This document shows positions 29,233 to 49,047 of a stretch of 64,000 nucleotides of DNA, piece by piece. Location: sequence record MZ311863.1; one strand, written 5' to 3'. Under the pieces are notes generated by a model. That model searched no databases. It had not been told where the DNA came from and worked only from the letters and a program-made list of their open reading frames with translations. Numbering within the stretch: position 1 is the first letter of the stretch; each line of letters opens with the position of its first letter. This DNA comes from Escherichia phage vB_EcoM_LNA1. The translations under genes and the position numbers were made by a program.

Positions 29233-29423
29233 TACTCAATGTCAATAAGTTCTTGTGCAATGCTTTTCAGATTACCTTTCAAGAAAACCTTCTCAGAACC
29301 TGAAAGAGATGAATTGTCAATTAACCTGTTCATTCTCTCAAACAACTTATGCTTACGGTTCTTGATAGTTTCCTTTGAAGCACCTTTCATCATCGCTGCA
29401 TGGGTTCTTCCACGGTGGCTCAT
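29214..29423 (-). CDS. hypothetical protein
   Basis: 69-aa basic ORF. Confidence 0.3.
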   Translation of the reverse strand: MSHRGRTHAAMMKGASKETIKNRKHKLFERMNRLIDNSSLSGSEKVFLKGNLKSIAQELIDIEYWRHQK

Positions 29424-29474
29424 AAGCCCTCCTATACAAGATATAGTATAAGGTACTCTTCCCTGAGCACCTTG

Positions 29475-30026
29475 TCAACTTAGTTTTGCAAACTCTCCGT
29501 GGAGTTTAATAGCAGCTTCACAGTAAGCTTTATGGGCTTCTTCAGGGGTGTCAAACATACCAAGATGATAGTTTTTACCTTGTAAACGTATCATTGCTCG
29601 AAACCTTTTACTTATCTTCTGTACACCTTTTGGCAACCCAGATGGGGACTCTCTTGACCGATTGCAAGAGTTTTGTGAAGCTGTACAAACCCTTAAATTC
29701 AAGTACCTGTTGTCCCAACCGTCCCCATTCTTATGGTCAACCTGTAAGGTTTTATCAGGTAGATATCCATCCATATACAAGATAACTAAACGATTTGCTT
29801 GGTAACCCCTTCCATCAATCAGCAACTGAACTGACTTGTGTCCATCAGTATTTGTTCTGTAGTTTCCAGCCCTCTTACCTCCAAATCTAGAGTTAAAGTT
29901 TGCATTACCTTCTCTAAACTTCCAAGTAAAGACCCCTGTTTCGGGGTCGTAGTCCAATAGCTCCTTAAGACGAATTTCTGTAATCATTTCAACACCATCA
30001 ATGTACCTCATACCAGCTCTTACCAA
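29475..30026 (-). CDS. HNH homing endonuclease with AP2-like DNA-binding domain (free-standing)
   Basis: HNH motif LQVDHKNGDGWDNRYLNLRVCTASQN; C-terminal AP2-like GKNYHLGMFDTPEEAHKAY; start overlaps the 3' end of DNA polymerase exon 2. Confidence 0.7.
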   Translation of the reverse strand: MVRAGMRYIDGVEMITEIRLKELLDYDPETGVFTWKFREGNANFNSRFGGKRAGNYRTNTDGHKSVQLLIDGRGYQANRLVILYMDGYLPDKTLQVDHKNGDGWDNRYLNLRVCTASQNSCNRSRESPSGLPKGVQKISKRFRAMIRLQGKNYHLGMFDTPEEAHKAYCEAAIKLHGEFAKLS

Positions 30027-30554
30027 CCTTTGCTGTACCAGTTACAAGTGTTTCTTTCCTCAAACCTAAGTTTTTTGAAGCTTGTCCATACATCCAGTCA
30101 GCAATTGCTTTCATATCCTGTGTCATACCCTCTGGACATTCCCAACTATTTTCATCGTGATATGCCAGAAGTAACCTTGCTCCGATAGCTGGTTTTCGAG
30201 CATTCAGTTTTGTCAGGCCATCTTCACAGGCTTTTCTTGCTGCTAGGTTGATGGCCTCATTCTGAATCTGTGCTTCCGAACTCATCAGGAGGTAGTTCAG
30301 GAGTTTATGTGGAGATTTGCACCATATCCATGCTCCAGCGACCCTGATATAACCACCTTTAGCAATTGAAGAATTCTTCCCAAAAACCTCTTCCAGAGCC
30401 TTTTTAGACGCCTTAAAATCGGCTTCTAAGCTGTCAAGTAACTTCTTAATCTTCGGTAGACGCATATAGTAAGTCTGCTTAGTCAATGCACCTTCTTCTG
30501 TAGATGATGCCTTGATAGTTTTTGCAAACTTCTCATCACCTGCACCGAACAATA
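29998..30554 (-). CDS. DNA polymerase (family A), exon 2
   Basis: Encodes remainder of motif B (LFGAGDEK) and motif C (LAYHDE); reading frame opens just after a stop; joins exon 1 in frame when intron 30555..30822 is removed. Confidence 0.75.
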
Positions 30555-30822
30555 CATCTGGTCAATACACTCGCAAGGTGTACCAGTTCTCTTATGAACT
30601 TCTCCGCATTTCTACGGAGTGTCGGACTATATCACGTAGTAGTAATACTACCGTTGCACTTGGGAATGGTCATTAGCTTACCACCCTACTCTACTCAGTT
30701 CATACATTAAGTATGCTTTTCGATAGTCTCTGAACGTTCCTCTCAAGAGGCTTCGCTGCTGATTACCGTATCTTCTCAGACTTAGGCTTCCAGCAATTCA
30801 CAACGTTTTACATGCGCCACTG
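30555..30822 (-). ncRNA. group I self-splicing intron (ORF-less, 268 nt) in DNA polymerase gene
   Basis: Exon 1 ends in U; P1 pairs exon ATGCGU with intron GCGCAT (U.G at splice site); P/Q/R/S-like elements AATTGCTGGAA, AATCAGCAGCG, GTTCAGAGACTATCG, GATATAGTCC; terminal G before exon 2. Confidence 0.7.
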
Positions 30823-32965
30823 ACGCATAAATGCCATTTTTGGCTTTCTTACGACCTTTTGTAATCTCGTGAAGAAGTTCCTCGTCCTGTGTCCCCCTAC
30901 AACGAACAATATCTTCTTCCTTGTTCAGACCAAAGTAAATACTGTTCAGTGTGTGTGCATCAGTACCTGTGTAGACTTCGTAGAGGTCATTCTCAGCATC
31001 ATAACGAAGATACTTATCAGTTTCTGGATTGAGGTACTTATCAAGATGCTTGCAATAGTATCTCCCATCATCTTGCTTAGTAAATTCTACAAACTCTTTA
31101 CCTTCAGTTACCGCTTTGGTGAAGTCTTTATCACCCATAAAGTTACACAGTAAAACAAGCTGTGCAGAGTTCTGGTCAACAGAAACAATGTTAGTACCCT
31201 CTTCACAAATCCACACTTCCCTCATAGGTGCTCCATAGACAGCAGCACCAGATGGTACGTTTACAATACCATATTGTGTCATACGTCCAGTTGAAGTACC
31301 AAATACCATTGCACCAGCACTAAGGCGACCATCGGGACGAATCTGGTTCAACCAACCTTTTTCATCATCCTTTGAGTTCTCAATAGTTCTGCGTCGGTGC
31401 ATCAAAGTATAGTACTTAGCAATCTTCTGTCCAAGCTCACCTTCAATCGTATCATAAGATGATTCAGTAAGCTTTGGTGAAGTACGGATTAAGCAAGGCT
31501 CAAGCAAATCTGTGTATTTCTTCACAGACCAGTTATGCTCAATGTACTGTACACCTTCATGTTCAACATAGCTCAAACCACACCGCTCAACCATTTCCTG
31601 CCACTTAGGATGTTTTGTAATCATCTTTTTATTGTCTTTGAAACGACAAACTTTGACAGGGCGACCATCTGAGTCTTTCTTGTAGTTCCAGTCATCTGGA
31701 ATCCAACCAACTGATTTCAAGTAATCTTTAACAACTGCTACCTGAGTCATACGAGAAACTTCGAACTCAATTGGTGTATAAGGTGCATCAATCAAACCTG
31801 TGTAGCGACTTGACTCAAGCTCAAAGTGATTAACAACATGGCTGTTATAGTACTTCACAGTTTTAACTGTTTTTACTGGCTTCCAGTCTTTGCATTTCTT
31901 ACCAATCTTTGCATTCAACTCATTACAAATTGCACGAGCATCCTTCATTGCTACAAAACCTTCCTTGTACTCTTCACCAGTTACAGAGTTGGTTGGTGTA
32001 TAGCAATTTCTCTTTTCAATGTTAAAAATCTTTGTAGTTGGCTTACCAAATGGTTTGATTTCATAAGTCTGCATCTCACCATTACGTACCTGCTGACGAT
32101 ACTTTGTCTTAGGATACTTGGTAATTCTCTTCAGTCCATCTGCATGACCAAATGTTTCAACATACTCATTCCAAGCTTTTGCAAACTCTTCTCCAGTGAC
32201 TTTACCTTTAGTCTTAATAGTTGGAGGAAGATGTGGTTCAACTTCTGAAGCAAGCTCATTAGTCAACTTGTCAAGTTCCTTTACATGGAACTCCATAAGC
32301 TCTTTATCAGCTTTCCAACCATTGATAGCCTGTTGACTCATCCAGAAAGATGTTTCTTTAGCTCGCATGTAGGTTTCATAAGTATCTACGCCACACTTCT
32401 TTAGCTTGAGATATTCATTATCCAGTGCGCGTTTAGTTTTGGCGTTAATACGGATATCTTCCACAACACGAGTGAAGATTTCTGCATTCCACACACCCCA
32501 ATGTTCAATCTCTGGTTTACGTACACCAACACGAGCACCCCATGCAGCCAAGCCATGAGCACCTTTATAACCTTTTGGAGTTGGTCTATCCATCCACTGA
32601 ACACGGGACTGGATAAGAGAATCCTGAAAGAAATTACTCCACGGTTTACACTTTGGATTATCAAAGTTCCATAAATCCGGTGCAATGTGATTGAAAACCC
32701 ACCAGTCATAACCGAGACCGTTATGGATACAAAGACGTTTTGCCTTTAACGCAAACTCAACACCTTCACGTAAGCCACCCTTAATGTACTTAGTGTACTT
32801 GTGACCGAGGATAGGCTCATCTGTAAAGACCCATACAGGTGGCTCTTCATCGTCAGATTTATAGTCTGCAAAGGCCATTACGTGAACTTTAGTGAACTCA
32901 AGGAGTAAACCATCAGTTTCTGTATCACCAACCAAATGTAAGTTTTTAAAATCTACGTTTTCCAT
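30823..32965 (-). CDS. DNA polymerase (family A, T7 gp5-like), exon 1
   Basis: 3'-5' exonuclease motif DTETDG near N-terminus; motif B start RKKAKNGIYA interrupted; the ORF-track stop at 30782 lies inside the intron. Confidence 0.8.
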
Positions 32966-33223
32966 TTTTTACTCCCTCTAAAACCATTAACCTCATACAC
33001 TACTGCAAAAAATTATAAAAAGCAAGTTGACAATGCACTTGACAAGGTGTTAATCTTTGCGAAGTGGGTTTTTACTTAAAAGGTTACTTAACAGTTTAAC
33101 TATACAGATACTTTAAAACTCTTAAAAGATTATTTAATAGCTTTTAAAAAGCTTTAAAGTATAACGTATAGAATACGTTAAGATAAAAGATTAAAACTTA
33201 ATAGTTACTTAAAAGAGGCTTAC

Positions 33224-33646
33224 ATGCAGAAAATGTTTGTTCACCCAGACATAGCTGACTTTGTTAGAGCTTTGCAGAAGTTGGAAGAACTTGACATTGC
33301 TGCTCAACGGGAATATGCTCACCATCACAGGAGAATGGTTGATATACAACATGAAATAGAGTTGTCTGAAAACTATGAAGATGACTTAAAATGCTCTGTA
33401 TTTGAGCATATGAAAGATGTTGCTACAGCTAGACGTAAAGCTAAAGACACAGTTGCTTTACTAGATTCTCTTAAAAAGAGGTTGCAAAGTGGTACAGACC
33501 TGTGTAATCTAGCGTCACTGATTAATGATGTTGAAACTTCTTGGGATAGACATTACTATCCACGTTCTGAAAAGACACTTGACTTTTCTTCATCCGAAAA
33601 CTTAAAATGTTCTAGAAAGAAACTTAACCAACTGAGAGAGAAATAA
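33224..33646 (+). CDS. hypothetical protein
   Basis: 140-aa ORF, first gene after AT-rich divergent intergenic region. Confidence 0.35.
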   Translation: MQKMFVHPDIADFVRALQKLEELDIAAQREYAHHHRRMVDIQHEIELSENYEDDLKCSVFEHMKDVATARRKAKDTVALLDSLKKRLQSGTDLCNLASLINDVETSWDRHYYPRSEKTLDFSSSENLKCSRKKLNQLREK

Positions 33647-46160: not shown

Positions 46161-47357
46161 ATGAACAAAGTACAGATTATTAAAAAGAATGGCTCACTTG
46201 AAGAACCTGATATCAAAAAAGTTTTAGCAGCAGTCACTAAGTCAGCTAATAGGGTTGGGTATAAAGAACTACCACCAGATGTTACCCAAGCTCTTGAGTC
46301 AGCATTTATGAGGATTCTGGTAAAATCCACTAAGCAGAATAATTTACTCATTTCAGTAAATGATATTCACAGTATTGTTGAGGGTGCTTTGGCAGAAGTC
46401 AATCACGAGATTTATGAGTCTTACTCAACATATAGAAATTACCGTAAAGAAGTTGCTCAAAATTGGGATGAACTCTACCAGAAGACCAAAGATACACTCT
46501 TCTTAGGTGACAGAGAGAATGCTAACTTTGACAGCAGTTTAATTTCTACAAAAGGCTCAATTATTCGTGGTTACCTGACTAAAGAAATCTTTAAACAGTA
46601 CCATTTAACACCAGAGGAACTTGAAGCCATTGAAAAAGGGTTTATCTATATCCATGATTTAAGAGACCTGATTTTTGGTGGTATCAACTGTTGCCTGTTT
46701 GACATTGGCAAAGTGCTGAAAGGTGGCTTTGAAATGTCTGGCATTGAATACTGTGAACCGAAGTCTGTACTGTCAGCCTTACAGGTTATTGGTGATGTAG
46801 TTCTTTCAGCAACTGCACAGCAATTTGGTGGCTTTACTTTAGCAGAGATTGATAAGGTACTTGTACCGTATGCTAAAAAATCTTTAGTGTACCACTCAGA
46901 GAAAGCTGAAGAGTACGGAATCCCTAAAGAGCAACACTATAATTACGTAATGGAGCAATTACAGAATGAGTTAACACAAGGTTTCCAATCTCTTGAAATG
47001 AAACTTAACACTGTTCCTTGCAGTCGCGGTGATTTTGCATTTACTACTCTGACATTTGGTCTGTTGGAACCAGATATGCACAATGAAGATAACCGTCTTC
47101 AGTTTATGATTGCCAATACAATCCTTAACGTAAGGATGAACGGGCAAGGAAAAAGCAAAAAACCTGTTGTGTTCCCTAAACTTGTTTATATCTATGAAGA
47201 AACGAGACATAAGCTTGATGTATGCCAAGCAAGGTTGTTTGAAAAAGCTATTGAGTGTTGCTCTAAAGCGATGTATCCAGATTTCTTAAGTGTGTCTGGT
47301 CATGGTGCTGTAGCAGAGGCTTTTGAGCGTTCTGGTAAGGTAATTTCACCGATGGGT
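46161..47357 (+). CDS. nrdD: anaerobic ribonucleotide reductase (class III), exon 1
   Basis: ATP-cone at N-terminus; ends ...ISPMG immediately before intron; the in-frame TAA at 47358 is intronic. Confidence 0.75.
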
Positions 47358-48099
47358 TAACAAGCTCTATAGCTCATCTAAAACGTGCCTAAACAGGGAA
47401 ACTCTACAGATGTAGATAATCCTGTGCTAAATGATGTAAGATGTAAGAAACTATATAACATAGGAGTATTACATGCCAAATTATCATGTTACTGAAGACG
47501 GAAGAGTCTTTAGAGAAAATGGTGTAGAGCTTACACAGTGGAAATCCAACACTGGGTATATGAAAGTAAAGTTTTACGGTAAGAAGAATCGTGACATGTA
47601 TGTCCATAGGTTAGTTGCTGAGAAATATGTACCTAACCCAAACAATCTTCCAATTGTAAAACACAAAGATGATAACAAACTGAACAACCATGCTTCTAAC
47701 TTAGAATGGGGAACTCATTCTGAGAATGTTAAAGAAGGTTATGAGAACGGTTGCTACAAGTTTTGTAAGCGTTCATATGCTGTGAAGGCTACACACAAAG
47801 TGACAAAAGAAGTTATTGCTGCCAAGTCAATACGAGAGTTATCCAACATACTCGGATATAATCGCAAGACTATCTCTTCAATATTGAAGGGTGTAAAAGA
47901 GCATAATAACTTTGAACATGAATTTGAATACATCTAAATGCCGAACGACTAACCGTGATGAATGTAGCGGTGTAGGGTCAAGCGACTCGAAATGGTACGC
48001 TACTTAGAAATAAGTAGAAGATATAGTCTGGACTTACTGGTGACAGTAAGCAGCTTGGATAAAGCGGGGTAAGCGTAGCGAACTTACCTGAACAACAAG
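47358..48099 (+). ncRNA. group I intron in nrdD carrying an HNH endonuclease ORF
   Basis: Exon 1 ends in U, intron ends in G; P/Q-like CAGGGAAA (47394) and AATCCTG (47418); R/S-like TCAAGCGACTC (47978) and GAAGATATAGTCTGG (48018); P8-like hairpin with GTGA loop; removal fuses PMG-CRAFL in frame. Confidence 0.6.
47473..47937 (+). CDS. intron-encoded HNH homing endonuclease
   Basis: HNH motif HKDDNKLNNHASNLEWGTHSEN; 154 aa; lies in the loop between the Q-like and R-like intron elements. Confidence 0.7.
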   Translation: MPNYHVTEDGRVFRENGVELTQWKSNTGYMKVKFYGKKNRDMYVHRLVAEKYVPNPNNLPIVKHKDDNKLNNHASNLEWGTHSENVKEGYENGCYKFCKRSYAVKATHKVTKEVIAAKSIRELSNILGYNRKTISSILKGVKEHNNFEHEFEYI

Positions 48100-49047
48100 T
48101 GTAGAGCGTTTTTATCACCATACCATAACGAAGATGGTGAAGAGTTTTATGTAGGTCGTGCTAACATTGGTGCTGTATCTTTGAACTTACCAATGATTTA
48201 CCAGTATTCTAAAGAGAATGGCTTAGATTTCTGGAAAGAGCTTGATAAGTACCTAGAAATGATTCGCAGCTTCCACAAGAAACGTTACGAAATGATTGCT
48301 AATATGCCAGCAAGTTCTAACCCTCTTGCATTCACACAAGGTGGCCTGTACAAAGGGAATAAGAAACCTACTGACAAGGTTGGCTGGGATATCGTGAAGT
48401 CCTTCACAGCTTCTTTTGGGGTTACTGCGCTTGATGAGCTATCTGTTCTTGCTGAAGGTAAACGACTTCATGAAGTTGGAAGCTGTAGTTTTGCATATGA
48501 TGTTCTGGAATATATCAACATGAAGACTGAAGAGTTTAAAAATGAAGATGGCTTCTTATATGCAGTCTATGGCACTCCAGCAGAATCACTTTGTGGAACT
48601 CAGCTAAAACAGTTCAGAGATATGTTTGGCGTTATCAAAGGCGTTTCTGACAAGGAATACTTTACAAACAGTTTCCATATGAATGTTGCAGCAGACATTA
48701 CACCATTTGAGAAGCAGGACTTAGAAGAACCTTTCTTCCATATCTGTAGAGGCGGCAGAATCCAGTATGTAAGAGTGGCTAATCCAGAAAACTTATCAGC
48801 ACTTAAGAGTTGTATTACAAGAGGGATGTTGAAAGGTTTCTATCAGGGACTTAACTTTGACTTAGCAATCTGTGAACATTGTGGTAACAGACCAAAGGCT
48901 GATGTTGAAGAATGTGATGTTTGCCATTCACATGATATTTCTGTGATTAACAGGGTGTGCGGATATCTGGGATGGACTAAGATTAAAGGTGAATCCCGAA
49001 TGAACGATGCAAAAATCGCTGAGATTCGTGACAGAATTTCTATGTAA
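48100..49047 (+). CDS. nrdD: anaerobic ribonucleotide reductase (class III), exon 2
   Basis: Begins CRAFLSPY...; contains glycyl-radical motif RVCGYLG near C-terminus; frame opens 8 codons upstream after a TAG. Confidence 0.75.
   Translation, partial: CRAFLSPYHNEDGEEFYVGRANIGAVSLNLPMIYQYSKENGLDFWKELDKYLEMIRSFHKKRYEMIANMPASSNPLAFTQGGLYKGNKKPTDKVGWDIVKSFTASFGVTALDELSVLAEGKRLHEVGSCSFAYDVLEYINMKTEEFKNEDGFLYAVYGTPAESLCGTQLKQFRDMFGVIKGVSDKEYFTNSFHMNVAADITPFEKQDLEEPFFHICRGGRIQYVRVANPENLSALKSCITRGMLKGFYQGLNFDLAICEHCGNRPKADVEECDVCHSHDISVINRVCGYLGWTKIKGESRMNDAKIAEIRDRISM

Follow-up and report, generated by a model that had tools for sequence, protein, structure and literature searches.

A compact group I intron without an open reading frame in motif B of the DNA polymerase gene of the Felix O1-like phage vB_EcoM_LNA1

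The family A DNA polymerase of Escherichia phage vB_EcoM_LNA1 is encoded in two pieces, and the question raised by this arrangement is what the 268 nt between the pieces represent and how a working polymerase is obtained across them. The window analysed here is a 64,000-nucleotide stretch of sequence record MZ311863.1 and belongs to Felixounavirus, the genus of Felix O1-like myoviruses; a megablast search with 29400..33000 matched 260 phage records, nearly all of them Felixounavirus of Escherichia, Salmonella or Shigella, the best full-length match being 95% identical. On the minus strand, an ORF at 32965..30782 encodes 727 aa that make up the N-terminal three quarters of the polymerase. The initial annotation had claimed that this frame stops inside motif B and is picked up again 268 nt later, and both statements are borne out. 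Past ...GRKKAKNGIYA the frame runs through 14 codons of the insert and meets a TAA at 30784..30782; it restarts at 30554 with (L)LFGAGDEK, followed by LLAYHDE. The ORF list gives the second piece as 30552..29998 (184 aa, minus strand), starting (L)FGAGDEK and including the LLAYHDE of motif C. The upstream piece, whose last base is U30823, thus carries the exonuclease domain, the thumb, motif A and the first half of motif B, while the downstream piece carries the second half of motif B, the HDE of motif C and the C-terminus, with its stop codon at 29998..30000. Apart from the 14-codon read-through, the ORF list contains no sense-strand ORF inside 30555..30822.

When 30822..30555 is deleted in silico, GCG-U is followed directly by UA-UUG and the two pieces become one ORF of 899 aa which matches Pfam DNA_pol_A, in agreement with the in-frame product of about 899 aa that had been proposed. 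The predicted spliced junction reads ...GGCAUUUAUGCGU^UAUUGUUCGGUGC..., which may also be written ...AATGGCATTTATGCGT^TATTGTTCGGTGCAGG.... Motif B becomes RKKAKNGIYA/LLFGAGDEK, identical to that of intron-less relatives such as Felix O1 and ph2-2, and the region aligns without a gap to R518-K535 of T7 gp5, such that the restored motif is indeed as long as that of T7, as had been stated. The insertion point falls inside the codon that corresponds to T7 F528, following its first base (phase 1), and thus lies within the O-helix, between the equivalents of T7 Y526 and Y530. Taking T7 Y526 to be E. coli F762, an equivalence which we regard as established, the site corresponds to E. coli position 764 (L764).

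The exact boundaries were examined in a set of 35 alleles, comprising the window, six GenBank loci and 28 IMG/VR loci (one duplicate pair, VpaE1, included), in which the boundaries were located from tblastn-anchored coordinates and direct reading of the bases. The insert is absent from 24 of the alleles, and in the other 11 it starts and ends at identical bases. Alignment to intron-less polymerase homologues was one of the checks that had been suggested, and its outcome is clear: the insert is precisely missing in all 24 intron-less Felixounavirus alleles, Felix O1 among them, each of which encodes the uninterrupted peptide NGIYALLFGAGDEK of the spliced product, the intron-less target being ATCTACGCCCTGTTATTTGGAGCC and its variants. 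A shift of either boundary by a single base would alter the conserved A-L-L peptide. From this peptide and the base-level comparison with intron-less relatives, the boundaries originally proposed are correct. The coordinates of all features are collected in Table 1.

Table 1. Features of the split polymerase locus in the window, with the evidence on which each is placed.
Feature	Position	Strand	Basis
Polymerase 5' exon	30823..32965	-	ORF list; spliced translation; Pfam DNA_pol_A on the spliced product
Polymerase 3' exon	29998..30554	-	ORF list; spliced translation; T7 gp5 alignment
Group I intron, 268 nt, IA2-like, no P2, no ORF	30555..30822	-	Rfam RF00028; exact absence in 24 alleles including Felix O1 and ph2-2; 87 canonical pairs
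P1 hairpin	30812..30828	-	Direct reading; same in all 9 distinct copies; exon bases linked to intron presence
P3 5' strand to P6a	30735..30805	-	Rfam match; structure drawing; sibling comparison
P3 5' strand	30805..30799	-	
P4	30796..30790 / 30762..30756	-	
P5/P5a with GAGA tetraloop	30787..30765	-	
P6/P6a	30755..30735	-	
Catalytic core with guanosine-binding helix (P7 to P7 3' strand, J8/7)	30624..30730	-	Rfam; pairing; compensatory change in P8
P7 5' strand	30730, 30728..30724	-	
P7.1	30715..30701	-	
P7.2	30686..30662	-	
P3 3' strand	30658..30652	-	
P8	30650..30637	-	
P7 3' strand	30629..30624	-	
P9 to intron end	30555..30619	-	Pairing; beyond the end of the Rfam match
P9 with GAAA tetraloop	30619..30602	-	
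P9.1	30599..30586	-	
P9.2	30585..30559	-	
P10 exon 2 strand UAUUG (pairs with intron CAGUG, aligning the 3' splice site)	30550..30554	-	Allele comparison; alignment of copies
Free-standing HNH_3 + AP2 endonuclease gene	29475..30026	-	Pfam HNH_3, E 6e-12; overlaps the polymerase stop codon

Membership of the insert in the group I class is indicated most strongly by the covariance model, a search that had also been named as a check. On the minus strand, Rfam RF00028 scores 61.5 bits (E 3.7e-13) against a curated gathering score of 50, well outside what chance would produce, and it is the only Rfam family to reach threshold within the 64-kb window. The Rfam boundaries, 30885..30602, are off at both ends, in that exon sequence is borrowed as P1/P2 and the match ends at P9. 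At the 5' splice site lies the P1 helix which the initial annotation had described, with its U.G pair: exon AUGCGU (30828..30823) pairs with the internal guide sequence GCGCAU (30817..30812), and U30823.G30817 forms the wobble. The loop of this hairpin, CAGUG (30822..30818), is the guide for P10, and this second pairing (CAGUG:UAUUG), which is absent from the earlier description, also forms. The exon-terminal U and the intron-terminal G that had been noted are U30823 and G30555, and both are invariant in all intron copies. Likewise, the P/Q/R/S-like elements can be assigned as P AATTGCTGGAA, Q AATCAGCAGCG, R GTTCAGAGACTATCG and S GATATAGTCC, and the helices P3-P8 are all present, including the P3/P7 pseudoknot. 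The in-frame stop codon falls in P5.

The full structure (P1, P3-P9.2 and P10) was drawn by hand from the LNA1 sequence, and all 87 of its pairs are canonical in the window. When nine distinct Felixounavirus copies are aligned, 99.9% of the cells are paired; sliding the partners by 1-3 columns lowers this to 29-42%, a control that is partly circular since the structure was drawn from the same sequence; the Rfam score is therefore the stronger evidence. Compensatory changes are seen in P6a (C-G to U-A) and in P8 (U-A to C-G), together with several one-sided changes that keep the pair. These two are the only changes of both sides of a pair within the genus, the covariation being thin among copies so similar to one another (about 98%). 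All other substitutions lie in loops, and L5 appears as GAGA, GGAA or GUAA, which is a GNRA tetraloop every time. Thermodynamic folding to the minimum free energy is unremarkable (z = -1.73), and such folding of the intron does not recover the P3/P7 pseudoknot.

Within the group I class, subgroup IA2 is distinguished by the extra helices P7.1 and P7.2 and by a linker that ends in G-U-A (PMC3428280). Both helices lie between P7 and the 3' strand of P3 in the LNA1 intron, with every pair canonical and invariant, and the linker AACUGAGUAGAGUA ends in GUA as expected for IA2, although its length exceeds three bases. The fold has no P2. In this regard, the IA2 polymerase intron of Pf-WMP3 self-splices although it too is without P2 (PMC3428280).

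Taken together, the covariance model, the precise absence of the insert in relatives, the gapless alignment to T7 gp5 and the P1-P10 fold support the original interpretation of an ORF-less group I intron that splits motif B of a family A polymerase. That part of the claim stands; what has to be refined is its scope, as the element is not unique to one genome. By blastn, the intron core is carried by about 96 GenBank phage records, mostly cultured isolates, and the sequence of the window's copy is 100% identical to that in phages REP8-REP12. Very probably, then, 30822..30555 is a catalytically intact, ORF-less, IA2-type group I intron that is removed to give one polymerase mRNA and that arrived by homing. 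As an observation on these records, two Campylobacter phages, A132 (MG065664) and A126 (MG065668), are about 95% identical to the Felixounavirus polymerase DNA here and have the same intron, while Listeria phage LPML1 (OK283618) shows about 70% identity to the spliced-junction query, in the range of Erwinia phage hits; the host labels of these three records look doubtful, which may reflect contamination or mislabelling.

The polymerase gene is essential and the carriers are cultured lytic isolates, and necessarily, therefore, the polymerase must be expressed despite the intron. The best-supported route, as judged from the sequence, is standard group I chemistry at U30823 and G30555. The polymerase pre-mRNA would fold into P1-P10, whereupon an external guanosine bound at P7 would attack after U30823, held in P1 by its U.G pair with the guide GCGCAU. 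The freed 5' exon, lined up with exon 2 by P10, would then attack after the terminal G30555, and the ligated mRNA would encode one 899-aa polymerase with an intact O-helix. Unspliced RNA would be expected to yield only the 727-aa truncated protein, owing to the stop codon 14 codons into the intron.

It might be supposed that splicing does occur in vivo but depends on a phage or host protein, a chaperone or a maturase-like factor, which would make good, for example, the missing P2. The lack of that helix and a minimum free energy fold that is not unusually stable are in keeping with such a dependence. Against it, no part of the core is missing: P3-P9 are canonical, and both P7.1/P7.2 and a pair of GNRA tetraloops are present. 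Nor does the window's copy contain a maturase-like ORF, and the P2-less IA2 intron of Pf-WMP3 and the introns of PhiI and W31 self-splice in vitro (PMC3428280). We consider a protein requirement improbable.

Less likely again is that the polymerase is truly split, the 727-aa and 184-aa ORFs being translated apart and the proteins then assembling, with the intervening RNA a dead relic of an intron, in the manner of the split gene 43 of some T4-like phages. Such a reading accords with the GenBank records, which annotate two polymerase CDSs, and with an in-frame TTG at 30552. This TTG, the sole in-frame start, has no Shine-Dalgarno sequence and sits in P9.2 and the 3' splice site; a promoter and terminator scan of 29300..33400 found neither kind of signal in the insert; and the break would bisect the O-helix, between the Y526 and Y530 equivalents of T7. 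For these reasons independent translation of exon 2 is unlikely. Moreover, an unselected relic would not keep 87 of 87 canonical pairs, its GNRA loops and the exon bases of P1 and P10 across lineages. That the insert is an assembly artefact, or the gene a pseudogene in a defective genome, is effectively refuted by its recurrence: about 96 phage records that were sequenced independently, and six IMG/VR contigs, have an identical or near-identical insert at exactly this site.

The history of the intron can be approached through its flanks. All 11 intron-bearing alleles have TATGCGT/TATTG around the site and with it both of the exon strands required, AUGCGU for P1 and UAUUG for P10, whereas in 22 of the 24 intron-less alleles position -1 is C instead of T and the leucine codon is CTG instead of TTA. 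Compared with its nearest intron-less relatives (L008, L032 and ph2-2), the window has 11 synonymous differences, all of them in -8..+20; beyond +20 the sequences are identical out to +55, and further downstream they are 99.6% identical. P10 does not require those at +8 to +20, which match the sequence of the other polymerase clade, as would fit a short co-conversion tract from a donor.

The intron itself tells a similar story. Polymerase lineages that share only 72-80% identity in their exons have intron copies that are 95-99% identical. When the window is compared with VpaE1-type phages, for instance, identity is 72-80% over exon sequence up to 400 nt from the site and 95-96% over the intron. 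The distribution is patchy (11 of 35 alleles), the intron is more conserved than its host gene and the flanks appear co-converted, as expected of a homing intron. The contrast in identity and the patch of donor-type exon point to spread by this route, and we infer that the intron was mobile in the past: it would have come to this polymerase lineage from a related phage, together with about 30 bp of donor exon. As a separate observation on the gene, a sharp mosaic boundary divides 29998..31220 (approximately) from 31220..31720 on the minus strand of the window. Between -900 and -400, on the upstream side of the intron site, all Felixounavirus polymerase alleles share 91-100% nucleotide identity, and from about -400 to the 3' end of the gene identity between clades is 72-80%, falling to 52-60% beside the downstream HNH gene. 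This divergent block covers both of the sites that are associated with endonucleases.

Across Felixounavirus the same intron is known in four states. In the first, of about 802-805 nt, an intact ORF of 160 aa, preceded by AAGGAGAG, occupies the P6a loop (its position corresponds to L6a, 30746..30743, in the window) and matches Pfam Endonuclease_7 (E 6e-20); this form is seen in, among others, DE7, EC6 and three IMG/VR contigs. In the second, of 780 nt (VpaE1), a 22-nt deletion shifts the frame and truncates the ORF to 101 aa. In the third, a 311-nt remnant (Mushroom), only the leader and tail of the ORF are left, in an extended P6a stem. The fourth, of 268 nt, in which P6a is short and its loop is UUGA, is the form found in the window and the commonest of all, the intron core being in about 96 GenBank records and the ORF in 21. 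This series is the classic pattern, as far as comparison of the sequences goes, of an invasion and then the decay and loss of the gene for the homing endonuclease; the 268-nt form may be either ancestral or the result of a clean deletion. The window's copy encodes no homing endonuclease and, without an endonuclease VII-family gene, would be unable to mobilise itself. Rfam misses the ORF-bearing forms, scoring 24.6 and 15.2 bits for their two halves, which probably explains why they are annotated as a mere 'endonuclease VII' between two polymerase genes.

Two 268-nt copies share the short P6a and differ in their 3' halves, that of the window grouping with DE7, EC6 and Mushroom (P8 U-A) and that of L013/BPS17W1 with the VpaE1 type (P8 C-G), a difference that suggests recombination between intron forms.

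A free-standing endonuclease gene lies beside the intron-containing gene in the window, which is the adjacency known from collaborative homing. The slot 3' of the polymerase is, in the 35 alleles, either empty or filled by one of at least four HNH-AP2 alleles with 42-53% mutual identity, and is thus a hotspot for free-standing genes of this kind. Its state is independent of that of the intron. Indeed, the window combines an HNH allele of Mushroom type (97% identical) with a polymerase and intron of REP8 type, and its HNH-AP2 protein is unrelated to the endonuclease VII-family ORF of the intron and is 37% identical (E 6e-17) to the HNH protein in the RNA polymerase intron of phage vB_EcoP-ZQ2. 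In a small and non-independent sample, a downstream HNH gene accompanies all four ORF-less or remnant introns, 15 of the 24 alleles that lack the intron, and two of six distinct introns that contain the ORF. That the intron and its HNH neighbour are functionally linked was considered as the main explanation of the locus and rejected, as the HNH alleles vary independently of the intron. There is only a small chance, in our estimate, that the Felixounavirus polymerase locus displays a whole mobile-intron life cycle at a new O-helix target, in which the ORF-less form is still mobilised in trans, by the adjacent HNH-AP2 protein or by the endonuclease of a co-infecting sibling.

A further gene in the window is also split. 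The anaerobic ribonucleotide reductase gene nrdD is interrupted at 47361..48100 on the plus strand, between ORFs at 46161..47360 and approximately 48100..49047, by an insert of about 750 nt with an HNH-type ORF of 154 aa (47473..47937). At 47870..48050 the group I model of Rfam scores below its threshold (38.3 bits, E 3.3e-6), and an S element, GATATAGTC, is present; the insert is probably a second, ORF-bearing group I intron. A 'split nrdD' of these phages has been mentioned (PMC4837284).

A literature search for the polymerase intron in Felix O1-like phages returned no description and just two indirect mentions. The paper on the Felix O1 genome reports no introns (PMC3185647), correctly so, because Felix O1 has the intron-less allele; that on phage SPJ41 lists 'two introns' from an ncRNA scan with no further detail (PMC9951933). 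Comparative papers speak of homing endonucleases inserted 'between genes or into genes' and say nothing more (PMC3728262). Each of the four intron-bearing GenBank records that were examined gives two separate polymerase CDSs with no join. The practical consequence is that about one third of sequenced Felix O1-like phages, many of which are candidate agents of biocontrol or therapy, have two 'DNA polymerase' genes in their annotation, some with an orphan 'endonuclease VII' as well, where the correct annotation is one joined polymerase CDS with an intron. The intron of LNA1, in other words, belongs to a familiar kind of element, has for the most part escaped annotation and occupies a previously unreported site. 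It is conceptually unsurprising and leaves the general understanding of group I introns unchanged. What it adds is a site in motif B to the three published for family A polymerases (674, 676 and 881), together with sequence-based indications that an endonuclease VII-family protein can act as an intron-borne homing gene. The cultivable coliphages and Salmonella phages involved cover every stage of endonuclease gain and loss, and are suited to experiments on intron homing and decay.

Knowledge of group I introns in phage family A polymerases goes back to SPO1, and for coliphages to PhiI and W31; the published sites are 674 (SPO1, SP82, Bastille and Pf-WMP3), 676 (phiL7) and 881 (PhiI and W31) (PMC3428280). 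Like that of LNA1, the PhiI and W31 introns are IA2-type elements in the family A polymerase of enterobacterial phages, and theirs are self-splicing (PMC3428280). Their homing endonuclease ORF lies in P6a, as in the ORF-bearing siblings of the LNA1 intron. They differ in site, which is E. coli Pol I position 881 in motif C as opposed to motif B, and in their endonuclease, the HNH protein I-TslI, where the LNA1 siblings encode an Endonuclease_7-family protein and the LNA1 copy none. The introns of SPO1, SP82, Bastille, Pf-WMP3 and phiL7 likewise interrupt conserved finger-domain codons, and that of Pf-WMP3 further resembles the LNA1 intron in being IA2, in lacking P2 and in having an early intron stop codon; unlike the LNA1 intron, these five occupy other insertion sites and each has an HNH nicking endonuclease (PMC3428280). 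A blastn comparison found no sequence similarity of the LNA1 intron to any of them.

With respect to the neighbouring HNH-AP2 gene, the situation is analogous to the pairs of free-standing and intronic endonucleases described by Shub's laboratory. 'Collaborative homing' was reportedly described by Zeng et al. in 2009 and Bonocora and Shub in 2009 (both cited in PMC3428280), for the ORF-less psbA intron of cyanophage S-PM2 with the adjacent free-standing endonuclease F-CphI and for T3 gene 5.3 beside the polymerase gene. The S-PM2 case is like that of LNA1 in that an ORF-less intron in a conserved phage gene is adjoined by a free-standing HNH-type gene. In contrast to S-PM2 and T3, alleles of the HNH-AP2 gene also adjoin intron-less polymerase genes and are not tied to intron state, and the likeness comes from gene order.

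Outside Felixounavirus, the closest core by blastn is that of the RNA polymerase intron of the N4-like phage vB_EcoP-ZQ2 (72% over 209 nt), which differs in its host gene, in having P2 and in carrying its HNH-AP2 ORF downstream of the core. In the ZQ2 record (L006 460..1380; NC_070874) an 'HNH endonuclease' stands between two CDSs that are both labelled 'RNA polymerase', and the interval scores as a strong group I intron (91.8 bits in Rfam), which the annotation does not name. A more distant blastn relative, in phage cr3_1, is in a polymerase with no recognisable motif B at the break.

Close in position is an insert in the polymerase of Escherichia phage 24-2-1 (Avunavirus), the gene of which holds two unannotated inserts (L039, OK181861; 331..1040 and 1385..1659 of L039). 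One follows '...YYH' at motif C, the PhiI and W31 site, and scores 91.2 bits in Rfam. The other interrupts motif B between ...ITYG and IMYGAQ, a single nucleotide away from the LNA1 site, and has group I core elements and a P9/P9.1/P9.2 layout similar to that of LNA1; its Rfam score of 47.5 bits (E 2.7e-10) is sub-threshold and its boundaries are approximate. It differs in having an HNH ORF in P6 and in being in phase 0 rather than phase 1, and blastn detects no similarity between this insert and the LNA1 intron. On these sequence comparisons, the O-helix site looks like a recurrent target of introns in unrelated groups of phages.
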